A stretch of 64,000 bases of DNA from a candidate division WOR-3 bacterium (GCA_016867815.1 VGIR01000005.1:779-64778), one strand, 5' to 3'. Counted from the stretch's first letter, positions 2,135 through 18,717 are shown. The notes: generated from the sequence alone by a model not told the origin. Program-made: numbers and translations.

Positions 2135-2436
2135 CGCGCCCCTGCTGAGAACATAGCCCGCGTCGGCGGGCCTTCGCACGCGCCCGCTCTCACTGTCCCG
2201 CCACACGCCTCCGGGTATCGGCATCTGCACCCCGGCTTCCAGATTCGTCCTCCGCGCCGACTAGCCGAATCCTGACAATTGGCCTATCCGCGCCTGGCAG
2301 ATCGGCCCTAGGCTGTTGCCGCATGTTTGCGGCGGCGCCATCCAGCAGAAGAGCGTGCGTCAGCACACCCAGCAATATTTCGCTTGAATCTGTCAAGGAA
2401 TTGGCCATAATGGTGAGCCTACCAAGGAACGCGGTC

Positions 2437-3120
2437 TTGACTACAGTACTTGAAGACAAAATCGCCGGATTGAAGCAGCAGCTCTTCACGATGGCCGGTA
2501 TCGTGGAAGAGATGATCGGCAACAGCGTCAAGGCGCTGGTCCACAGGGAACCGGCGCTGGCCGAGCAGGTGATCGGCCCGGACGAAGACCGCGTCAACCG
2601 GCTGGAAATCGAGAACGAGGACGCGGCCATCAACCTGATGGCGCTCTACCAGCCCGAGGCTTCGAACCTGCGCGCCATTGCCATGATCATCAAGATCAAC
2701 AACGACCTTGAGCGGCTTGGCGACCATGCGGTCAACATCGCTGAGGCGGCCCAGTTCCTGATGACGCGGCCTGCGGTGAAGCCGCTGGTCGACATCCCGA
2801 AGATGGCCGACTACGCCATCGCCATGCTCAAGGACTCGCTCGACGCCTTCACGCGCACTGATGCCGAACTGGCACGTTCGGTCTGTGGCCGCGACAACAT
2901 CGTCGACGAGCTGAACGACACGGTGAAGACCGATCTCGCCCGGGTCATGAGCGCCGACGCCGCGACCATCGAGCGGGCCCTCAAACTGATGATGGTGTCG
3001 CTGAACCTCGAACGGATCGCCGACCTTGCCACCAACATAGCCGAGGACACCATCTACATCGCGACCGGACAAGTGATTAAGCACCACTGCAAGAACGAGG
3101 CACAGAACCCCGACCATTGA
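2437..3120 (+). CDS. phoU: Phosphate signalling protein PhoU
   Basis: Motifs INNDLERLGDHAVNIAE and NLERIADLATNIAEDTIY; TTG start after AAGGA is probable. Confidence 0.92.
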   Translation: MTTVLEDKIAGLKQQLFTMAGIVEEMIGNSVKALVHREPALAEQVIGPDEDRVNRLEIENEDAAINLMALYQPEASNLRAIAMIIKINNDLERLGDHAVNIAEAAQFLMTRPAVKPLVDIPKMADYAIAMLKDSLDAFTRTDAELARSVCGRDNIVDELNDTVKTDLARVMSADAATIERALKLMMVSLNLERIADLATNIAEDTIYIATGQVIKHHCKNEAQNPDH

Positions 3121-3797
3121 GTCGTCTGATAGCGGTCGTAGACGACGAGCCGGATATCCGTGACCTGGTTGCTCTCCATCTAAAGGGGGCCGGCTTCAGC
3201 GTCCGCGCCTTCCCCGACGCCACGCAGTTCCAGAAGTCGCTCGCCGGCAGCCTGCCGGACTTGGTCATCCTTGACCTGATGCTGCCCGATGCCGACGGAA
3301 TCGATGTCTGCAAGGACATGAAACGCGGCGCCCGTACTACCGACATTCCCATCGTCATGCTGACAGCACGGGGCGACGAACTCGACCGTGTGCTGGGCCT
3401 GGAAATCGGCGCCGACGACTACATCACCAAGCCGTTCTCGCCCAAAGAGCTGGTCGCCCGCGTGAAAGCCGTTCTCCGCCGCCGCGACAAGGGCGGCCGG
3501 CAGGCTACGGTTGAGCTGACCGAAGGCGTAGTCATGGACCCGAACCGCTACGAAGTCTCGGTTAACGGCCGGAAGCTGGAGCTGACGACTACCGAGTTCA
3601 AGCTCCTCGCAATCCTGGCGGAGCGCCGCGGCTGGGTTTTCTCCCGCGACGAGATCTTGGGCCGCCTGTGGGGTGACGAGAAGGCGGTTATCGACCGCAC
3701 GATTGACGTCCACGTGACGAACCTGCGAAGGAAGCTGGGGAAGGCGGGCCGGCTCATCGAGAACGTACGCGGCGTCGGCTACAAGCTTACCGACTGA
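3117..3797 (+). CDS. phoB: OmpR/PhoB-family response regulator
   Basis: Receiver (VVDDE, LDLMLP, LTA, KPF) plus winged helix (RTIDVHVTNLRRKL, VRGVGY); overlaps the phoU stop. The symbol is inferred from context. Confidence 0.85.
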   Translation: MSRLIAVVDDEPDIRDLVALHLKGAGFSVRAFPDATQFQKSLAGSLPDLVILDLMLPDADGIDVCKDMKRGARTTDIPIVMLTARGDELDRVLGLEIGADDYITKPFSPKELVARVKAVLRRRDKGGRQATVELTEGVVMDPNRYEVSVNGRKLELTTTEFKLLAILAERRGWVFSRDEILGRLWGDEKAVIDRTIDVHVTNLRRKLGKAGRLIENVRGVGYKLTD

Positions 3798-3799
3798 AC

Positions 3800-3897
3800 A
3801 GGAATCAAGGAATCGAGGATTCAAGGAACCCAGTGAACGGATTGCCCGAGTCAGGCTCTCACATGAATCCTGGAATCCTGGGATCCTCGTATCCTCT
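3800..3897. repeat. Inverted pair of 8-mer micro-repeat tracts, AGGAATC(A/G)-like on the left and GAATCCTG-like on the right
   Basis: aggaatcaaggaatcgaggattcaaggaacc ... gaatcctggaatcctgggatcctcgtatcct, between the regulator and kinase genes. Confidence 0.7.
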
Positions 3898-3906
3898 GCC
3901 CCGTCT

Positions 3907-5238
3907 TTGAAGCGCTACATCCTGCTGCGGTTGCTCGCCCTCCAGCTGGCGATAGTCATTGTGCTGCTCGTCGCAGGCCTGGCCGCGCGCGGCACGCGGC
4001 ACAACACGATCCTCTGGGTCACAGCCGCGGTTGTCACGGTGGCCACCGGCGCGGTGTCATATCTGGTCGCCCGCAGCACGGTGCGGCCGCTTCGTGACCT
4101 GACTGCGGCGTTTCGCCGGCTGAGTGCCGGCGACTTCGACGTCCGCGTGCTTCCCGCCAAGCGTGGCCGGCTGCGCGAACTTGGCGATGACTTCAACCAG
4201 ATGGTATTCAGGACCAAGACGCTGGTAGACGAACTGCGCCAGCAGCGCGAGGCTCTGGACGCAATCGTTGCGTCGATCCAAGAAGGCCTGGCCGTGGTGG
4301 ACGGGCAGGGCCGAATCGTCCTTGCCAACGCCAGCTTCCGCCGCCTGGCTGGTGAATCCAAGATCGAAGGCCGCTACTACTGGGAGATAATCCGCGAGCC
4401 GGATTTCGTCGAACTCGTTCGCTCAGTGACGGCCGGGGCCCCGTTGGCTACCCGACAGATCGAGATCGCCGACCGTATCTACGCCTGCAGCGCTAACTAC
4501 CTCGCGACCGCGCAACAGGTCGTTCTGACCCTCCACGACGACACCGAGGTCGCGCGGGCCGCGCAGATGAAGAAGGACTTCGTCCAGAACGTTTCCCACG
4601 AACTCCGAACGCCGCTCACCGCCATCAAGGGCTTCGCCGAGACCATGGAAGCGACCATTGACAACGGCAGCCGGCCGTACCTCGAGACCATCATCCGCAA
4701 CACTGACCGGCTCGTCAGTCTCGTGCAGGACCTGCTCACGCTCTCTGAACTGGAGGAACGCGGAGCCGGGCTCCAACTTGAGGACGTCGATCTGCGGGCC
4801 ATCGCCGCGCAGATGCTTCCGCTCTTCGACAAGGCGGCAAAAGACAAAGGACTCGAACTGAAGCTCTCGTTGTCCGGGGACGGTGTCCCGCTCCGCGCCG
4901 ACCGGTTCAAGCTTGAGCAGGTCTTCATCAACCTGCTCGACAACGCGGTCAAGTACACCGACAAAGGAGAGGTCGAACTCGCCATCAGTCGTGAGGACGG
5001 CAAGATCGTTATCGAGGTCCGCGACACCGGACCCGGTATTGCGGCCGAGCACCTGCCCCGGCTGTTCGAGCGCTTCTACGTGGTGGATAAAGGCCGCTCC
5101 CGCCGGCTCGGAGGCACCGGGCTCGGCCTGTCGATAGTGAAACACATCGTCCTCCTTCACTCTGGCGACATCTCGGTGCGTAGTACGCCCGGTGCGGGCA
5201 CGGCTTTCACCATCTCGCTACCGATCGGGACAACATAG
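3907..5238 (+). CDS. phoR: PhoR-like sensor histidine kinase (2 TM, HAMP, PAS, HisKA, HATPase)
   Basis: H-box NVSHELRTPLTAIKG, N-box NLLDNAVKY, G-boxes DTGPGI and GTGLGLSIVKH, and the PhoR-typical RFYVVDKGRSR. Confidence 0.88.
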   Translation: MKRYILLRLLALQLAIVIVLLVAGLAARGTRHNTILWVTAAVVTVATGAVSYLVARSTVRPLRDLTAAFRRLSAGDFDVRVLPAKRGRLRELGDDFNQMVFRTKTLVDELRQQREALDAIVASIQEGLAVVDGQGRIVLANASFRRLAGESKIEGRYYWEIIREPDFVELVRSVTAGAPLATRQIEIADRIYACSANYLATAQQVVLTLHDDTEVARAAQMKKDFVQNVSHELRTPLTAIKGFAETMEATIDNGSRPYLETIIRNTDRLVSLVQDLLTLSELEERGAGLQLEDVDLRAIAAQMLPLFDKAAKDKGLELKLSLSGDGVPLRADRFKLEQVFINLLDNAVKYTDKGEVELAISREDGKIVIEVRDTGPGIAAEHLPRLFERFYVVDKGRSRRLGGTGLGLSIVKHIVLLHSGDISVRSTPGAGTAFTISLPIGTT

Positions 5239-5395
5239 CCCGGCCACCGGATAGAAGCCGTATTGGCTGCGCGCTGCCCGGAATCGACGGTCACCATTCC
5301 GGACAAGCGACCACGACTGCAACGAAGGCGCTTGGGCGGCAGTTCCGGCCGCAACCATATCCGGAGTAGCCTCCGAGTCGCTACCTTCTCCGTCG

Positions 5396-5423
5396 TTGAC
5401 AAACAGAGGGGGAGGGCTAGACT
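5396..5423 (+). promoter_or_regulatory. Sigma70-like promoter TTGACA-N16-TAGACT
   Basis: Intergenic, upstream of the kinase at 5660. Confidence 0.5.
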
Positions 5424-5659
5424 TCCCGATACTGATGCTGGGTCGCATCCTCGGTCACGACTGGCCGTGTGCTCCGGGTTTGCGTCTCAACATAGGGAGC
5501 ATCTAACGACTTGTGATTAATGCAGATACCGTTGACTGACGCGACGAAGTGCAACCCGGAGCTCGCGCTGAAGCTGCAAGCGGGCATCTGGATGGCTGAG
5601 GACCTCACTCCCCATGACGCCGACGCGAGCGCGCCGCTCGTCGGCTCAACCTCGTAGAC

Positions 5660-6436
5660 ATGCTAGCAGGATCTCAGGCCCCGCCAGCGGGACTGCCCGG
5701 GCAGCCGGAACCTGCGTACGCCGACTCGCTGGCTATGGTCTGCCACGACCTGCGTACGCCGCTGGCGGCAATCAAAGAGGCACTGGCGCTGCTGACGGAG
5801 ACCGCAACCAGCCAGCTCGACGACCGTCAGCACCGCTACCTGGCCGTTGCCCGCGAGGAGATCAACCGGCTCAACCGGATGATCGACGACCTTGTTGAAG
5901 TTTCCCGAATGGAATCAGGCAAGGTTGTCCTGCATCCCAAGGCGGTGGACTTGTCCGAACTGCTCTCCGCTGCGACTGAGAGCCTGTCGCCGCTTGCGGG
6001 CAAGCGCAACCTGACAATCCGGCGCGACGTGCCGTCACTCCTGCCGCAGGTGACCGGTGACCGCGATCAACTGCTCCGCGTCTTCGGCAACCTCCTCGAC
6101 AATGCCATTAAGCATTCGCCTGTGGGCGGGACGGTTCGCGTGGGGATAACCCCTGTAGACCCGCGCTCGGGCGCACCTGCCGGAGATGGTAGCACTGCTC
6201 GCGACGGCTACGTCCAGGTCACGGTTTCGAACGACGGCCCCGGTATCCCGCCAGAGGCAATCGACCGGATCTTCGAGAAGTTCGAGCGTGCGGACTCGCG
6301 CTGCCCGGGAAGCGGGTTGGGCCTGGCAGTAGTCCGCTCGATAGTTGAGATGCACCACGGCAGGGTCTGGGCGGAAAGCACCTCAGGCCAGGGGGCGCGG
6401 TTCCAGTTCACGCTGCCCATCAGGGAGGCTTCGTGA
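5660..6436 (+). CDS. Cytoplasmic histidine kinase with no recognisable sensor domain
   Basis: HDLRTPL H-box about 25 aa from the start; NLLDNAIKH, NDGPGI, GSGLGL; no TM segment. An in-frame stop at 5615 limits N-terminal extension. Confidence 0.85.
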   Translation: MLAGSQAPPAGLPGQPEPAYADSLAMVCHDLRTPLAAIKEALALLTETATSQLDDRQHRYLAVAREEINRLNRMIDDLVEVSRMESGKVVLHPKAVDLSELLSAATESLSPLAGKRNLTIRRDVPSLLPQVTGDRDQLLRVFGNLLDNAIKHSPVGGTVRVGITPVDPRSGAPAGDGSTARDGYVQVTVSNDGPGIPPEAIDRIFEKFERADSRCPGSGLGLAVVRSIVEMHHGRVWAESTSGQGARFQFTLPIREAS

Positions 6437-6480
6437 ACACAGCCCGAGACCTTTGCGCCGGCGGCGGCCTTGCGCAGAGT

Positions 6481-6510
6481 TTGACTATCCCACTGGCCGC
6501 ACGGTATACT
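6481..6510 (+). promoter_or_regulatory. Sigma70-like promoter TTGACT-N18-TATACT
   Basis: Upstream of the response regulator at 6652. Confidence 0.5.
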
Positions 6511-6651
6511 GCAGTCGATGCAGCCGTGCCGAAGTCAGGACCTGACCGCAGGCGGTTCAATGACTAAGATGCGCCGCCGCAAGTTTGGGGTTCGGAGCAA
6601 CTCAGGCGAGACAGCCTTGTTCGATTTCATCCTGCCAGTCAAGGAGGACGC

Positions 6652-8901
6652 GTGACCAACACCAAGAAGAAGATACTCGTAGTTGAGGACGATGCCGGCC
6701 TGCGTGAAATGGTCAAGAGTAGGCTCGAGAAGGAAGGGTTTGACGTAGTCACCGCGACCGATGGGTTCCAGGCCGTCGTCACGGCACGCCAGGGCGACCT
6801 CGACCTGATTGTTCTCGATTTGATACTCCCCAAGATGGACGGCTACTCGGTATGCCAGCTGCTCAAGTCGAGCGGGGCAAAGACCCCGATCATCATCCTC
6901 AGTGCCCGTTCGTCGCCGGAGGACATACGCCGAGCCCTCGACATGGGAGCGAACGCCTTTGTTCCCAAGCCGTACGACGCGCCGGTGCTGGTGAGCAAGG
7001 TCCGCGAGATCCTGTTCCCCGGGGAACAGGCCAAGACGTCGGTGGCCGCACCCGTAGCAGCTCCTCCGAAACCGGCGCCGGTAGTTGAGGCGCCGAAACC
7101 GGCTCCAGCAGCGGCGGTTATGACGCCCCCCGCCCTGGACAAAGCGAAGGCGGAACGCGAGGCGGCGGAACGGCGGGCGAAAGAGGAAGCCGAAGCCAGG
7201 GCACGTGCCGCCGACGCTGAACGCAGGCGGCAGGAAGAAGCCCGGAAGACAACGCCGACACCCACCAAGGAAGAGCTCGAACTCATAGAAGAAGAGAAGA
7301 GACTCGCCCAGAAACGAGCCAAGCTGCAGGCTGAGGCCCAGGCTCGCGCCGAAGCGGAACGGAAGCGGCAGGAAGAAGAACAGAAACTCGCGGCGCAGCG
7401 CGCCCGCGAGGAAGCCGAAGCCAAGGCTCGCGCCGAAGCCGAACGTAAGCGCAGGGAAGAGGAAGAGAGACTTGCCGCGCAGCGCGCCAAGGAAGAGGCC
7501 GATGCCAAGGCTCGCGCCGAGGCCGAACGCAAACGCCGGGAAGAAGAACAGAAGATCGCGGCGCAGCGCGCTCGCGAGGAAGCTGAAGCCAAGGCCCGCG
7601 CCGAAGCCGAGCGCAGGAAGCGTGAGGAAGAGGAACGCAGAATCGCCGCCCAGCGGGCCAAGGAAGAAGCCGAAGCCAGGGCTCGCGCCGAGGCCGAACG
7701 CAAACGCCGGGAAGAAGAACAGAGGATCGCGGCGCAGCGCGCCAAGGAAGAAGCCGAGGCCAAAGCGCGCGTTGAGGCGGAACGCAGGAAGAAGGAAGAG
7801 GAACGAAGACTCGCCGAGCAACGCGCCCGCGAGGAAGCCGAAGCCAAGGCTCGCGCCGAAGCCGAACGCAAGCGGAAAGAAGAAGAAGCTCGCCGACTCG
7901 CCGAGCAGCGAGCCCGCGAGGAAGCCGAGGCTCGGGCACGCTCAGAGGCCGAGATCAAGCGGCTCGATGAGCAGGAACGCAGACTCGCCCAGCAACGCGA
8001 GAAGGACGACGCCAAGACCAAATCCCGCTTCGACGGAGAACGGCGAAAACTCGAGGAAGAGGAGCGAAAGCTCGCCGAGAGACGGGCGCAGTTTGAAGCC
8101 CAGGTGAAAGCCTACGCTGATGAGGATCGCAAGCGCAAGGATGAGGAACGGAAACTCGCCGAGAAGCGCGGGCAACTTGAAGCCCAGGTGAAGGCCTACG
8201 CCGAAGCGGAACGCAAACGGAGAGAAGAGGAACAGCGGATCGCTGCGCAGCGCGCCAAGGAAGAAGCTGAGGCCAGAGCACGGGCCGAAGCAGAACGCAA
8301 GCGGAAAGAGGAAGAGGAGCGCCGGAGACGGGAAGAGGAGCAGCGAGCCAAAGAGGAAGCCGAGGCCAGGGCACGCGCCGAAGCAGAACGGAAGCGAATC
8401 GAGGAAGAGGAGCACAAACTGGCCGAGAAGCGTGCCCGCCTCCAGGCCGATGCCAAGGCACGCGCTGATGAGGAGCGCAAGGTGGCCGAGCGGCGAGCCA
8501 AAGAGGAAACCGAGGCCAAGGCACGCGCCGAAGCGGAACGCAAGCGACTCGAGGAAGAGGAACGTTTGCTGGCCGAGCACCGCGCCAAGGAGGAGGCGGA
8601 AGCGAAGGCCCGCGCCGAGGCGGAGCGCAAGCTGGCCGAAATGCGCGCCAATGAGACAGCCAAGGCCAAGGCTCGGGCCGAAAAGGAGCGCCAGGTTGCC
8701 GAGCAGCGTGCCAAGCTCGAAGCCGAAACCAAGGCCCGCACCGAGGCCCAACGCAAGCGCACGCAGGAGGAAGCCGAAGCCAAGGCCCGCGCCGAAGCGC
8801 TGCAACGGGAATGCGAAGAAGAGGAACGCAAGCTCGCCGAACGGAAAGCCCGGCTGGAGGCCGAAGCCAAGGCCCGCGCCGACAAGAACCGCAAAGCATA
8901 G
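6652..8901 (+). CDS. Response-regulator receiver fused to a P/A linker and a very long E/R/K/A charged helical repeat
   Basis: Intact receiver residues (EDD, LDLILP, LSA, PKPY), then ~590 aa of 28-29-aa repeats such as EEEQRIAAQRAKEEAEARARAEAERKRR; RBS AGGAGG before the GTG. Confidence 0.85.
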   Translation: MTNTKKKILVVEDDAGLREMVKSRLEKEGFDVVTATDGFQAVVTARQGDLDLIVLDLILPKMDGYSVCQLLKSSGAKTPIIILSARSSPEDIRRALDMGANAFVPKPYDAPVLVSKVREILFPGEQAKTSVAAPVAAPPKPAPVVEAPKPAPAAAVMTPPALDKAKAEREAAERRAKEEAEARARAADAERRRQEEARKTTPTPTKEELELIEEEKRLAQKRAKLQAEAQARAEAERKRQEEEQKLAAQRAREEAEAKARAEAERKRREEEERLAAQRAKEEADAKARAEAERKRREEEQKIAAQRAREEAEAKARAEAERRKREEEERRIAAQRAKEEAEARARAEAERKRREEEQRIAAQRAKEEAEAKARVEAERRKKEEERRLAEQRAREEAEAKARAEAERKRKEEEARRLAEQRAREEAEARARSEAEIKRLDEQERRLAQQREKDDAKTKSRFDGERRKLEEEERKLAERRAQFEAQVKAYADEDRKRKDEERKLAEKRGQLEAQVKAYAEAERKRREEEQRIAAQRAKEEAEARARAEAERKRKEEEERRRREEEQRAKEEAEARARAEAERKRIEEEEHKLAEKRARLQADAKARADEERKVAERRAKEETEAKARAEAERKRLEEEERLLAEHRAKEEAEAKARAEAERKLAEMRANETAKAKARAEKERQVAEQRAKLEAETKARTEAQRKRTQEEAEAKARAEALQRECEEEERKLAERKARLEAEAKARADKNRKA

Positions 8902-8955
8902 CGCTCCCCACGGCAGATCTTCGCCGCCTGCCGAGCAACCGTTAGCCCGCAGACC

Positions 8956-9771
8956 GTGACAACACCACAGTTGATCAGATTCGCGCTGGCGGAAGATGTC
9001 GGCACGGGTGACGTCACCTCCCGACTTGCGGTTCCTGCTCGCCGGCTTGCCTCTGCCCGGCTGGTCGCTCGCGCAGCCGGAGTAATTGCCGGCCTCGATG
9101 TGTGCTGCCGGGTCTTCCTTACCGTTGACTCGTCTGTCCGCTTCGCGCCCAGGTTGGAGGATGGCGCTCGGTACCGCAGGAACCAGGTGCTTGCTGTCGT
9201 CAGCGGCCGGGCCCGGTCGATTCTCACCGCCGAACGCACCGCCCTCAACTTCATCCAGCGGCTGTCCGGCATCGCCACGGCAACCCGCAGATTCGTCGAC
9301 GCAGCCCGCGGGACCAAGGCCGTCATCCTCGATACGCGCAAGACGACGCCGGGCTGGAGAGTGCTGGAGAAGTTCGCGGTCCGCTGCGGCGGCGGCACCA
9401 ATCACCGTGCCGGCCTCTACGACATGATTCTCATCAAGGATAACCACATCGCGGCTGCCGGCTCGATCACGGCGGCCCTCGAGCGTTGCCGCTCCAGCCG
9501 ACTATCGACTGAGGTCGAGACGCAGACCCTGGCTGATGTCAAAGAGGCCCTGGCCGGTGGAGCGAAGCGCATACTGCTCGACAACATGACTGTGGCAGAG
9601 ATGAAGAAAGCGGTTGCGCTCGCCCGCGGCAAGGCGCAGCTCGAGGCCTCGGGCGGAGTCACTTTGCGGAACGTGCGCCGGGTTGCGCACACCGGGGTTG
9701 ACTACATCTCAGTCGGAGCCATAACCCATTCGGCTCCGGCCGCGGACATCGCGCTCGATTTCGAAGGGTGA
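8956..9771 (+). CDS. nadC: Nicotinate-nucleotide diphosphorylase (quinolinate phosphoribosyltransferase)
   Basis: Motifs LAEDVGTGDVT, LDTRKTTPG, NHRAGLYDMILIKDNH, LLDNM, EASGG, DYISVGAITHS. Confidence 0.96.
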   Translation: MTTPQLIRFALAEDVGTGDVTSRLAVPARRLASARLVARAAGVIAGLDVCCRVFLTVDSSVRFAPRLEDGARYRRNQVLAVVSGRARSILTAERTALNFIQRLSGIATATRRFVDAARGTKAVILDTRKTTPGWRVLEKFAVRCGGGTNHRAGLYDMILIKDNHIAAAGSITAALERCRSSRLSTEVETQTLADVKEALAGGAKRILLDNMTVAEMKKAVALARGKAQLEASGGVTLRNVRRVAHTGVDYISVGAITHSAPAADIALDFEG

Positions 9772-15160: not shown

Positions 15161-15342
15161 CAGACCTCCTTTGGACCCTGCTCTGGCAGGGCCCTGGTTC
15201 TCTTGGCTCCTAACGTTGCGCGGCATCCGACCCGGAACAACGACGGTGCCTGGTCGTGACCGCAGCTTTGGGATTCTACCCCGTCCGCGGCTCTGGTCAA
15301 GGAGGCGGGAAGGCGGGCGACAGACGTCGAGGCAACAAAGGA

Positions 15343-15368
15343 GCGGCGGGGATTCTCCTCCCCGCCGC
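15343..15368 (-). terminator. Stem-loop downstream of secreted paralog 2
   Basis: gcggcgggga-ttctcc-tccccgccgc, homologous to the hairpin at 13293. Confidence 0.55.
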
Positions 15369-15387
15369 AATCTGCAAAGCCGTCGGC

Positions 15388-17202
15388 CTAGTGCGTAACG
15401 ATGACCTTGGCCACGGGCGCATCGGTACCGGCGACCCGCGCGAAGTAGATCCCGTCAGCGAGCAGCCGACCATCAAGGACAACCTGGTCGCGGCTGAGGT
15501 CCAGCGTGCGCACGACGCTGCCGGTCGCGTCGTAGAGATCGATCGCCCTCTCCGCCCCGGTCGGGTTGAGTAGACGAAGAGTGGTGACGCTGCCGAACGG
15601 GTTGGGATTGACGTCAATCCGTACCGGCACGCGCGCCGGCGCCGGCTCCAGCCACTCCAGGATACCGACTGGCCCGGAAACCGTCGCATTAGCGCAGACA
15701 TCACGCACCACTGCGTCGCGGCTCGGTCCCCAGACGCCGGTGTTCTCCCAGCCCTGGTAGCAGAGCGGCGGCACTGAGTCCATACCGTACGACGGGTCGC
15801 TGGCCGTCTCAGAGGTCGAGCCGACGAAGAACGCGCCTTCCGTAACGACGACCGGCGTCGCCAGATTGACTGAGTACCAGTTGGCCGCGGAGACGGAAAC
15901 CGTGTCCGCGAACAGGATAGTCCCAGGGCCTTCGCCCGGACCGTCGTCGTCGTATATCGCCATCAGGACGTCGACCGTGCCGGCCGAGGTCATGTGCTGG
16001 CGGATGGCGCTGATCGAGCATGGATAGACCGGCGGCACGAAACGATTGCCGAACCCGCCCGGACCGTTCCAGGACATGGAGTTGCCAGGCGTACCGCTGT
16101 CAAAGGTAAGCATCCCCGGCAGGGTGACCACGCGGAGTTCGATCATCGCGGTGTCGTTCGCGGCCAGCATATCGCCGGTCATCTTGGTGATTATCTTGAT
16201 GATGTACGTGCCGTTGGTGACCGGACGCCAGGTGCTGCCGAGGGCGAGCGATTCGGTCTCGCCCGGGCCCGTTGCCATCGCTGTCATCGAGTCGGAGAAG
16301 ACAACCGCGTTGTTCTGCCTGGTTACCTTGAAGTACGTGGTGTAGGATGCTTCCGGCTGATTGCCGAAGTTCTTGACCACCGCCCAGAATGAAAGCGGCC
16401 GGTCGTTGATGGCGAACAGGCCGCCGCTACGGTCGTTCATCGCGTTGCGGACGCCCACGTCATGGATCTGCAGCGAGGTTGACTCGGGCGGGAAGAAACG
16501 AACCGCAAGATCGGGGTGGAGCACATTGCCCGACGGGGTCGTACCCGAAAGGTAGTTCAGACCTATCGCGCCCGATATGTTCTCGATGCCGGTCTGGTTG
16601 GCATCCGGCCCCCAGCCGTTGAACGGCGCGCCACTCTGTTCCTTGTACTGGAACGTGACCGAGGAGTCGGCCTTGGTCAGAATCATCTGGAATGTGTTGT
16701 TCCCGCCGGTACTCCAGAAAGTGATGCTGTCGTACTCCACGATGAAGCTGTCCGTCCCATTCGACCAGTACCAAACCGAACCGTTCGGGGAGCCGGTCGC
16801 GCTGCAGTCGAGGTCACTCAGCAGCGCCGCCAACTGGTTGTTCGGCTTGCCCGTGCCCGGGACCGGCTTGAACGGCGACGCGTTCGCCGACTTGTCACCG
16901 AACGCTATGTAGCCGTTGGACCCGACAATTACCGAGTTGACCTTATACCAGTAGTACGGGAAATCGAATCCGATCGGGAACGGCCCGGCATTGTTGTCAT
17001 CACCGAGGGTCGTTATCTCGGTACCGACACCCTTGATGCTCACCCAATTGTAGGTTGGAGCGCCCGAGCCGGTGGTGTCCGAGTCCAGATACTTGTAGCC
17101 ATATGTATCCGGGCCACCGCCACCAAGCACGGGAGCGCTGGACGGCAACATGCCCCCCGGGGTCAGCGCCACCAGCACGATTGACAGAATAGTTACGAAC
17201 AT
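15388..17202 (-). CDS. Secreted multidomain protein, paralog 2 (tandem duplicate of 13337..15160)
   Basis: RBS AAAAGGAGG; N-terminal ~360 aa nearly identical to paralog 1; same C-terminal KVIVTH. Confidence 0.88.
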   Translation of the reverse strand: MFVTILSIVLVALTPGGMLPSSAPVLGGGGPDTYGYKYLDSDTTGSGAPTYNWVSIKGVGTEITTLGDDNNAGPFPIGFDFPYYWYKVNSVIVGSNGYIAFGDKSANASPFKPVPGTGKPNNQLAALLSDLDCSATGSPNGSVWYWSNGTDSFIVEYDSITFWSTGGNNTFQMILTKADSSVTFQYKEQSGAPFNGWGPDANQTGIENISGAIGLNYLSGTTPSGNVLHPDLAVRFFPPESTSLQIHDVGVRNAMNDRSGGLFAINDRPLSFWAVVKNFGNQPEASYTTYFKVTRQNNAVVFSDSMTAMATGPGETESLALGSTWRPVTNGTYIIKIITKMTGDMLAANDTAMIELRVVTLPGMLTFDSGTPGNSMSWNGPGGFGNRFVPPVYPCSISAIRQHMTSAGTVDVLMAIYDDDGPGEGPGTILFADTVSVSAANWYSVNLATPVVVTEGAFFVGSTSETASDPSYGMDSVPPLCYQGWENTGVWGPSRDAVVRDVCANATVSGPVGILEWLEPAPARVPVRIDVNPNPFGSVTTLRLLNPTGAERAIDLYDATGSVVRTLDLSRDQVVLDGRLLADGIYFARVAGTDAPVAKVIVTH

Positions 17203-17457
17203 CAGTCCTCCTTTTCAGCCCCGCCTGGGCAGGGCTGTAGTTCGCTCTACTTGATGACTGCCCGGCCGCTAACCGGGCAGCACCGTATCATCTGCGGGCT
17301 CTTAGCAGAGTTGAATATAGGCCGTCCGTCCCGGAAGTCAAGGAGAAGTGGACACGGGTAACGACGTTGAGGACCATGCCACGGCACTGCCGCCGTCACT
17401 CACGCTCGCGAGGCTACTACTTGACTTTGCGCGATAAGGACCAAGAATATCACGCAA

Positions 17458-18717
17458 ATGGACAAGTTCATCGTCCGCGGCCCGACCAGGCTTGAAGGAA
17501 CGGTCTCGACCGCAGCCGCCAAGAACGCGGTACTGCCCATCCTCGCCGCCTGTCTGCTGACCGAGGAACCTTGCGTTATCCGGGACGTGCCCCTGCTCGA
17601 AGACGTTAAGACAATGGCCCGGCTCCTGCGGTCATTGGGCGTGCAGGTTGAGCAGCGGAAGCATACCATCAAGCTCGCGGCTGCTGGCAAGATAGAACGG
17701 ACCGCGACCTATGACATCGTGCGCAAGATGCGGGCCAGCTACTACGTGCTCGGACCCCTGCTCGGTCGATTCGGGGACGCGCGAGTCTCGCTGCCCGGCG
17801 GCTGCGCCATCGGCCCGCGGCCGGTTGACCTCCATCTCAAAGGCATCGCGGCGCTGGGTGCCGAAGTCGATCTTGAGCACGGCTATATCCATGCTACCGG
17901 CCGCCTGCGCGGCGGCACCATGCTGCTGGAAGGGACTTCTGGCCCGAGTGTCGGCGCCACTGCGAACACGATGATGGCCGCCGTGCTCGCCGAGGGCGAA
18001 ACCGTCATCCAGGGAGCGGCCTGCGAGCCCGAGGTTTCAGACCTCGCCGGCTTCCTCACTGTCATGGGCGCGAAGATCGAGGGCTGCGGCACGCCGGTCG
18101 TGAGAATCAGAGGCGTGAAGCGCCTGCACGGTGCCGACTACCGGCCGATCCCAGACCGGATTGAAGCCGGGACGCTCGCCGTTGCCGCCGCCATCACGCG
18201 CGGCCAACTGGAGATCACCGGCTGCGAACCCGCGCACCTCGTCGCGGCAATCGACTGCCTGCGCCAGGCCGGCGTGACCGTCGAGACGGGCAAACGTCGA
18301 ATGGTCGTCAGCGCCGAACGACGCCCCGAGGCAGTCACGGTCGCAACCGCGCCGTACCCGGGATTTCCTACCGATCTGCAGGCGCAGTTCACCGCGCTGC
18401 TGGCGACCGGCCATGGCACCAGCATCGTCACCGAGAACGTATTCGAATCGCGCTTCCTGCACGCGTTGGAACTGAACCGCATGGGTGCGAAGATCGACAT
18501 CAACGGGCGGATGGCGGTTATCCAGGGATCGGAGTACCTGTCCGGTGCTCAGGTGATGGCCTCGGACTTGCGGGCATCGGCCGCGCTGGTGCTGGCCGGG
18601 CTCGCCGCAAGGGGCGAGACCGAAGTCCAGCGCATCTACCACCTGGACCGGGGATATGAATCGATGGAGCTGAAGCTGGGCGGGGTCGGAGCGAAGATCG
18701 AGCGCGTCAGTTACTGA
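17458..18717 (+). CDS. murA: UDP-N-acetylglucosamine 1-carboxyvinyltransferase
   Basis: AKNAVLPILAA, MRAS, SLPGGCAIGPRPVDLH (catalytic Cys), PYPGFPTDLQAQ, DLRASAAL, HLDRGY. Confidence 0.97.
   Translation: MDKFIVRGPTRLEGTVSTAAAKNAVLPILAACLLTEEPCVIRDVPLLEDVKTMARLLRSLGVQVEQRKHTIKLAAAGKIERTATYDIVRKMRASYYVLGPLLGRFGDARVSLPGGCAIGPRPVDLHLKGIAALGAEVDLEHGYIHATGRLRGGTMLLEGTSGPSVGATANTMMAAVLAEGETVIQGAACEPEVSDLAGFLTVMGAKIEGCGTPVVRIRGVKRLHGADYRPIPDRIEAGTLAVAAAITRGQLEITGCEPAHLVAAIDCLRQAGVTVETGKRRMVVSAERRPEAVTVATAPYPGFPTDLQAQFTALLATGHGTSIVTENVFESRFLHALELNRMGAKIDINGRMAVIQGSEYLSGAQVMASDLRASAALVLAGLAARGETEVQRIYHLDRGYESMELKLGGVGAKIERVSY

Follow-up and report, generated by a model that had tools for sequence, protein, structure and literature searches.

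Scaffold-type response regulators of the FrzS, AglZ and RomR kind are known from Myxococcus xanthus. FrzS combines a receiver fold with a coiled coil; the rod localizes the protein, and the receiver domain docks onto three tetratricopeptide repeats (TPRs) of SgmX (PMC9811614). Both FrzS and AglZ are described as pseudo-receivers without the phospho-accepting aspartate (PMC1974792). RomR, a polar scaffold, is composed of a receiver, a Pro-rich region and an acidic C-terminus; it is a phosphorylatable receiver whose low-complexity, non-enzymatic output part serves in localization (PMC2034494). Here we analyze a locus of a candidate division WOR-3 bacterium in which a truncated histidine kinase of 258 amino acids (aa) is followed by a 749-aa response regulator carrying a charged, rod-like tail (Table 1). 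The locus lies in a window of 64 kb (64,000 nucleotides, GCA_016867815.1 VGIR01000005.1:779-64778), the whole stretch of DNA analyzed, on contig C5 of a metagenome-assembled genome (3.37 Mb, 95% complete), designated G000. Other genomes are numbered likewise, G001 to G010 being congeners and G014, G017, G023 and G051 belonging to other genera. Both open reading frames (ORFs), 5660-6436 and 6652-8901, were confirmed exactly at these positions. By analogy with the Myxococcus proteins, the rod regulator is a new variation of the scaffold type.

The rod regulator shares with FrzS and AglZ an N-terminal CheY-like domain, a very long helical tail and the lack of an enzymatic or DNA-binding output. 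In addition, the FrzS receiver docks the TPR protein SgmX, and in this WOR-3 genus a TPR protein carries the same rod as the regulator. Unlike FrzS and AglZ, the rod regulator keeps the phospho-accepting D56 together with the full catalytic set and an adjacent kinase, and its tail is of the single-helix type rich in Glu and Arg/Lys (ER/K), whereas theirs is a heptad coiled coil. It belongs moreover to the phylum WOR-3, and the FrzS precedent is one of analogy, not of homology. RomR resembles the rod regulator in its phosphorylatable receiver and non-enzymatic output, and its layout is closest to the orthologues with a Pro-rich leash in sister genera. However, the output of RomR is a long, disordered Pro-rich region and not an 80-nm helix, and no homology of the tails was found. 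Stand-alone receivers with a HisKA kinase (RR468/HK853 of Thermotoga; CheY, DivK, CpdR) have the layout of most orthologues of the rod regulator, and their output is protein-protein contact. Compared with them, the rod regulator adds ~620 C-terminal residues, and its kinase has lost the sensor.

Beyond the REC fold, no sequence relationship to FrzS and AglZ emerged: profile and word searches detected no receiver protein with a related tail, which is a weak test because these searches suppress low-complexity tails. The word-indexed homologue search with the receiver and linker returned generic multi-domain regulators, and its receiver-only matches have Pro/Ala-rich, not ER/K, tails. In the full-library phmmer search with the whole protein, multi-receiver proteins dominate and the 14 inspected are without an ER/K tail; the composition correction masks the tail, and this outcome does not establish the absence of receiver-rod proteins from other phyla. 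Nothing scored in the word search with tail residues 420-749, and the PDB sequence search with the tail gave no matches. By exact look-up in a protein collection, the kinase is present, while the sequences of the regulator and of the TPR protein are absent.

The only Pfam match of the regulator is the receiver domain (Response_reg/REC, PF00072) at 96.6 bits, against a cut-off of 30.2 bits. In the AlphaFold2 (AF2) model, calculated with six orthologues, the receiver adopts a β5-α5 fold at a predicted local distance difference test score (pLDDT) of 80-91. Residues E12, D13, D56, S84 and K106 are invariant in six congeners, position 103 is F or Y, and the same motifs are found in all orthologues of the family. 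The nearest solved relatives are the receivers of MtrA, PhoP and DrrD, all of the OmpR family, and RR468. Pfam and hydropathy revealed no DNA-binding, enzymatic or transmembrane (TM) part; the highest mean Kyte-Doolittle value over 19 residues, 1.29, falls in strand β3 of the receiver. A Pro/Ala-rich linker, whose length differs among congeners, joins the receiver to the tail. Since this linker is predicted to be disordered and uncouples the head from the rod, the receiver is unlikely to control the rod allosterically.

The tail is composed of repeats with a period of 84 nt (28 aa) by Tandem Repeats Finder (TRF), which share 60-80% DNA identity between units. Counted from residue 176, it contains 574 aa, of which E (154), A (136), R (114), K (65) and Q (31) together make up 87%; ~60% of its residues are charged, 7% are L, I, V, M, F, W or Y, and 24% are Ala. 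Opposite charges are paired at i/i+4 at 0.40 per residue versus 0.18 in shuffled sequences (z=+16), whereas like charges are paired at 0.02 versus 0.18 (z=-12). In the best global heptad register, large hydrophobic residues occupy 13% of the a/d positions (34% counting Ala). Furthermore, AF2 predicts helices at residues 164-196, 206-365 and 376-747 with pLDDT ~80-85. Judged by its charge pattern, the rod carries the signature of an ER/K single alpha-helix (SAH) and not that of a coiled coil, apart from a central heptad patch, and it would probably behave as a single helix in solution. Both the congeners and the TPR-protein tail retain the sequence landmarks of the central segment.

ER/K SAH domains act as semi-rigid spacers (PMC5378345, PMC5347031). 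The rod shares with such helices (myosin VI/X levers, the KER helix of CAF-1, designed AEEEXXX) the richness in E, R and K and the dense i/i+4 salt bridges; over most of its length it also has no hydrophobic seam, the central patch being the exception. It differs from them in its length of ~545 residues, its high Ala content, its 28-aa repeat architecture and its linkage to a bacterial receiver. To our knowledge, natural SAHs extend over tens to ~200 residues. An alpha-helix rises 0.15 nm per residue, so that the ~545 residues of the rod, if fully helical, would extend over ~80 nm. If monomeric, the rod would thus rank among the longest natural single alpha-helices. Domain II of TolA is likewise a long helical region rich in Ala, Lys and Glu, but TolA is periplasmic, anchored in the membrane by its N-terminus and carrying a globular domain at its C-terminus, whereas the rod regulator has a cytoplasmic receiver as its head. 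A TolA-like, membrane-anchored or periplasmic reading was rejected, as neither a TM segment nor a TolA Pfam match was found.

The tail is under clear constraint. Its ratio of nonsynonymous to synonymous substitution rates (dN/dS) against five congeners is 0.10-0.13 at dS ~1-2, and that of the receiver is 0.07-0.26, the tail being as constrained as the receiver. In six congeners the tails align unit for unit, with insertions and deletions of whole units. The comparison of repeat numbers in relatives, proposed by an earlier reading of the window (hereafter the first-pass annotation), thus yields co-linear tails. That annotation had also described a receiver with intact phosphorylation residues, lacking a DNA-binding or enzymatic output and a TM anchor, which continues through a P/A linker into 28-29-aa repeats of E/R/K/A/Q with single-helix character. 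All these points agree with our results, the central heptad patch being the exception. Its proposal of a phosphorylation-controlled ruler calls for revision: across a disordered linker of ~38 aa (pLDDT ~35), phosphorylation is unlikely to change the rod, which looks like a passive spacer or assembly module.

The kinase matches HisKA (aa 24-87, 63 bits) and HATPase_c (aa 133-255, 108 bits) in Pfam, and nothing else. Its H-box reads CHDLRTP, with H29 as the phospho-acceptor, and the orthologue alignment shows conserved N, G1, F and G2 boxes. The catalytic set of a HisKA-type kinase is present, but not a sensor or input domain N-terminal of the dimerization and histidine phosphotransfer (DHp) domain. 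Only 28 aa precede H29. No possible start lies between the upstream stop and the ATG at 5660, which leaves no space for a sensor. Nor does the kinase contain a TM segment, its highest 19-residue Kyte-Doolittle mean being 0.87.

Orthologous kinases in other genera and in the congener G001 have 481-494 aa, with two PAS-like domains (~250 aa, PAS-PAS) before the H-box. In contrast, G000, G003, G005, G007, G008 and G010 possess the DHp-catalytic core alone (258-306 aa), with no PAS remnant upstream of the truncated kinases. The species with truncated kinases form one sub-clade in the tree, with G001 and G009 branching first, and a single truncation event is therefore the simplest reading. By this comparison, the sensorless kinase is a derived truncation, the two PAS domains having been lost in this sub-lineage. 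The first-pass annotation was thus right that the kinase has no sensor here, but this state is not ancestral, and one congener has lost the kinase. In this congener, G004, the partner kinase is reduced to an N-terminal remnant of ~50 aa directly upstream of the rod regulator (locus L034, 6060-6212). The G004 regulator, next to phoU-phoB-phoR, is in effect an orphan. The dN/dS of the kinase core against congeners is ~0.2-0.39, with all catalytic boxes kept; by this measure, selection on the kinase is relaxed relative to the regulator, yet not neutral.

The receiver has a best match in each of the 40 relatives searched; within its own family, 41 of 44 genomes, representing all 15 genera, yield one. 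The order kinase, regulator, nadC, then dprA, obg and coaD (where the contig extends that far) was found at 19 of the 20 relatives' loci examined, the single exception being G004 with its kinase remnant. Judged by this synteny, the regulators at the conserved locus are positional orthologues. As conserved synteny of kinase, regulator and nadC is the usual genomic criterion, the neighboring kinase is almost certainly the cognate partner of the rod regulator, in line with the earlier suggestion of partnership.

Three classes of regulator occupy this locus. Most orthologues of the family and order are single-domain receivers of 130-190 aa beside the same kinase; this short class (139-191 aa) ends in a brief Pro-rich stretch, and some members have one ER/K-like unit that ends like the long tails. 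The leash class of the sister genera carries a Pro/Ala/Glu-rich leash of 80-190 aa with a conserved ...EExxAR[VA]RPP motif and an amphipathic C-terminal helix. These C-terminal helices (AGFLKRLLNRLFGKK, GFFARLFGWGKK, GFFARLFRRLFK and others) follow a pattern like G-F-[FL]-x-[RK]-[LF]-[FL], which is absent from the protein of the window. They resemble, in sequence only, the membrane-targeting sequence of MinD, KGFLKRLFGG (PMC5471200). The motif, in the form (L/T)xxEExxAR(V/A)RPP, stands 30-60 residues before the amphipathic helix at loci L040, L041, L045, L129, L131, L132, L135 and L136. The rod class, with charged helices of 396-769 aa, includes every member of this genus and elsewhere single genera or species (G017, G023, G014 and G051). 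For example, the G051 regulator has 661 aa versus 168-204 aa in its congeners. The rods are of the SAH type in this genus and in G014, and heptad-rich and coiled-coil-like in G017 and G051. In G009, two tandem receiver genes follow the kinase (locus L036, 7292-8183), an open frame of 167 aa and a rod-bearing one of 562 aa.

Well-supported branches of a concatenated tree of nadC, dprA, obg and the kinase core force at least three origins of the rod, and most genera of the family are without one. On this evidence a stand-alone receiver has acquired the tail as an addition particular to certain lineages, and a long helix as such seems to have been selected repeatedly. Homologues lacking the tail, which the first-pass annotation would have counted against the rod, do exist in most genera, but the feature stands, the tail having been gained at least three times. 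Since the output is plastic on a constant receiver, these data point to a tail that sets location or reach and not chemistry.

When the whole G000 genome was scanned for ER/K-rich stretches, a single long one turned up besides the regulator tail, in a 964-aa protein encoded on contig C29. This protein is composed of ~400 aa of TPR_12-type repeats, a short linker and an ER/K tail of ~540 aa. Its tail is co-linear with that of the regulator, including the non-repeat landmarks; the two are 66% identical over 597 aa, and their DNA is 73.5% identical. Orthologues with the tail (851-964 aa) are present in seven congeners (G003, G004, G005, G006, G007, G008 and G010), of which G003 and G005 have two each; G002 has two short tail fragments only, on small contigs. 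No TPR protein with the tail was found in G001 or G009 (both 88% complete) or outside the genus. The tails cluster by gene class and not by species, which makes the duplication an old one whose products have stayed similar through selection and not through gene conversion. On the same grouping, concerted evolution of the regulator and TPR tails within a genome was rejected. In addition, the species with the TPR-borne tail belong to the same sub-clade that lost the PAS domains of the kinase. The gene lies downstream of glyQ and convergent with clpB, and its neighbors (clpB, glyQ, an HD-domain gene, surE and an aminotransferase) give no functional hint. This genus has a large paralogue family of TPR_12-type proteins of ~350-470 aa, each genome encoding at least a dozen (in G000 for example on C7, C24, C53, C64 and C85), and only one or two per genome carry the rod.

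Taken together, we favor, at a probability of about 0.5, a reading in which the tail is a passive, portable spacer or assembly rod that positions a phospho-switch receiver served by the truncated kinase. We infer phosphotransfer between the two proteins, as well as the spacer or assembly role of the rod, from their sequences. The receiver head would be the switch, acting through phosphorylation-dependent protein-protein contact or dimerization, like other stand-alone receivers. The truncated kinase would be its phosphodonor and phosphatase, with an input that is no longer PAS-based. The rod itself would not be an effector but a passive spacer, tether or assembly handle, which fixes the position, reach or co-assembly of the head, most plausibly with the TPR protein bearing the same rod. 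Such a switch would probably act through position or assembly and not through gene control.

Several observations weigh against the passive spacer. The genes around the kinase-regulator pair are housekeeping genes that give no hint at its function. The central patch (~90 aa) has a local a/d occupancy of 0.5-0.6, versus 0.1 in the canonical repeats, and in the rods of G017 and G051 60-72% of the windows have a/d occupancy of at least 0.5. The AF2 model is monomeric and would draw a strand of a coiled coil identically. Given the central patch, the coiled-coil-like orthologues and the OmpR-family-like receiver, the rod could pair. Moreover, the relaxed selection on the kinase (0.23-0.39) and its loss in one congener suggest that phosphorylation by this kinase may be becoming dispensable.

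These points lead to the strongest alternative, in which the rod is a pairing or polymerizing element like the coiled coils of FrzS and AglZ. The tails of two regulators, or of a regulator and a TPR protein, would zip in register, and phosphorylation or dimerization of the receiver would control the assembly of a cytoskeleton-like scaffold. This alternative is possible, although we hold it to be on the unlikely side. The co-linear tails of the two proteins with their common landmarks, the patch and the heptad-rich rods of G017 and G051 argue for it, as does the great similarity of both tail classes (branches of 0.03-0.12) despite the old duplication. The receiver is closest to those of the OmpR family, which dimerize upon phosphorylation. 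In addition, the coiled coil of FrzS suffices for polar localization (PMC9811614). However, the canonical 28-aa units have charged residues in every a/d register, consistent with the low global occupancy, and identical charge patterns in parallel register would repel each other. The TPR tails also contain internal prolines, and strict length matching of the regulator and TPR tails was not supported by the comparison.

A more specific form of pairing, which we regard as doubtful, avoids parallel alignment in register. The rods of the regulator and of the TPR protein would form a portable, sequence-specific pairing handle, staggered or antiparallel for charge match, with the heptad patch as nucleus. 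They would build a two-headed or filamentous scaffold of ~80 nm that bears a phospho-switch at one place and a TPR docking platform at another. On this reading, since the sub-lineage that acquired the TPR rod also lost the PAS domains of its kinase, signal input could have passed to the TPR partner. If true, the scaffold would act as a cytoskeletal or ruler element gated by phosphorylation, and would represent a new type of response-regulator output.

Two further readings assign the tail another role. It might be a disordered polyampholyte that drives condensates or acts as an entropic bristle without defined length. Its low-complexity composition, the differences in length between species by whole units and the genuinely disordered Pro-rich leashes of sister genera are compatible with this. 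Nevertheless, the non-random i/i+4 charge pattern stabilizes helices, continuous helices are predicted by AF2, and the position-specific conservation at dN/dS ~0.1 goes beyond the needs of composition alone, all of which makes disorder improbable. The tail might also be a single helix that binds nucleic acids or other polyanions and tethers the receiver to the nucleoid or to RNA. The K/E/R single helix of CAF-1, 128 Å long, both binds DNA and is a spacer (PMC10335832), and the tail of the rod regulator has a net charge of +13 and a basic C-terminus, KNRKA. Yet +13 over 574 aa is nearly neutral for such a length, each helix face mixes acidic with basic residues in the repeat consensus, and the sister genera swap the tail for a membrane-targeting helix and not for a DNA-binding element. 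Docking on nucleic acids is hence highly improbable.

The repeat region was also examined for assembly. The longest exact DNA repeat within the regulator gene is 47 nt. Eight lake-metagenome runs each hold 94-99% of the words of this gene, and in four of them contigs built at k=31 tile the gene with at most one difference, the unique pieces being at single-copy depth. Contigs at k=31 break only inside 7400-7850, at two shared words of 44-47 nt. Low-depth contig junctions were seen in runs X1 and X3 at 7241-7402 and 7486-7761; one of them skips 160 nt, and the other goes back and inserts 27 foreign letters. These odd junctions may reflect variation in repeat number or between strains, or cross-matching to the paralogous TPR protein. 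Given the co-linear tails of congeners, the metagenome tiling and the low dN/dS, mis-assembly or junk expansion of the tail is very unlikely. The contig breaks, the two odd junctions and a kinase truncated here and lost in G004 might be read as an assembly artefact or a decaying, non-functional expansion beside a pseudogene remnant, but we give this hardly any credence, as the exact repeats are short, the depth is single-copy, the tails come from independent assemblies of at least six congeners, and both tail and kinase core are constrained with all catalytic boxes intact.

ORF calls and Pfam place five genes in one direction at this locus: phoU, the genes for a PhoB-like regulator and a PhoR-like kinase, and the kinase-regulator pair. 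In this genus, the first three lie immediately upstream of the pair (2323-5238). In most other genera examined, the ~6 kb of sequence retrieved upstream of the kinase contained no phoR. The PhoR-like kinase might conceivably cross-talk with the rod regulator. Beyond nadC, the genes dprA, obg and coaD are on the opposite strand. The gap between kinase and regulator is 215 nt here, whereas in other genera the two genes abut or overlap. A scan of 5150-9100 found two sigma-70-like promoter sites, versus 0.1 expected, one upstream of the kinase gene and one in this gap. The GTG start of the regulator is kept at the same position in five congeners. An Rfam scan of 5000-9200 revealed no RNA family. 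Long "shadow" ORFs of 211-501 aa overlap the repeats on the minus strand (6535-7821, 6843-8021 and 7942-9447) and in other plus-strand frames (for example 7472-8107); they are not genes but by-products of a GC-rich, stop-poor repeat.

Table 1 Features of the kinase-rod regulator locus (window coordinates) and of the TPR protein sharing the rod.
Feature	Position	Strand	Basis or remark
phoU	2323-3120	same direction as kinase-regulator pair	
PhoB-like regulator	3117-3797	same direction as kinase-regulator pair	
PhoR-like kinase	3907-5238	same direction as kinase-regulator pair	
Sigma-70-like promoter site, upstream of kinase gene	5396-5423	+	TTGACA-16-TAGACT, 10/12 matches; consensus match only
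Truncated cytoplasmic histidine kinase, 258 aa, DHp and catalytic core only	5660-6436	+	Pfam, orthologue alignment
Codon of phospho-accepting His29 of the kinase	5744-5746	+	H-box H[DE]xx[TN]P conserved in all orthologues
Sigma-70-like promoter site, kinase-regulator gap	6481-6510	+	TTGACT-18-TATACT, 10/12 matches; consensus match only
Strong Shine-Dalgarno sequence AAGGAGG, 4 nt before the GTG start at 6652	6641-6647	+	Read from sequence
Response regulator with rod tail, 749 aa	6652-8901	+	ORF, Pfam, orthologues
Receiver (REC) domain, aa 8-117; phospho-Asp D56 codon 6817-6819	6673-7002	+	PF00072, alignment, AF2
Disordered Pro/Ala-rich linker, aa 126-163 (~38 aa)	7027-7140	+	AF2 pLDDT ~35, no secondary structure
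First short charged helix, aa 164-196, and TTPTPT hinge, aa 197-205	7141-7266	+	AF2 helix; pLDDT <50 at 196-205
Rod, ~545 aa, 28/29-aa E/A/R/K repeats, consensus AEAERKRREEEQRIAAQRAKEEAEAKAR	7267-8898	+	TRF, segmentation, SAH statistics, AF2, dN/dS
Central irregular segment, aa ~430-520, L/F/V/Y spaced 7, 4 or 3	7939-8211	+	Candidate short coiled-coil/pairing patch
nadC	8956-9771		Downstream of regulator
TPR-rod protein, 964 aa	G000 contig C29, about 15257-18151 (locus L149:4258-7152)	minus	

The case for the passive spacer rests on sequence and the organisms are uncultured, and its present value is a well-defined set of constructs for in vitro work. The truncation and loss of the kinase sensor show a pathway being rewired in real time. 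Response regulators are usually classed by their enzymatic or DNA-binding output; here, at one locus of one family, the receiver is found tail-less, on a membrane leash or on a rod of ~80 nm. This family thus offers a natural experiment in tuning the position and reach of a phospho-switch, and not its chemistry.

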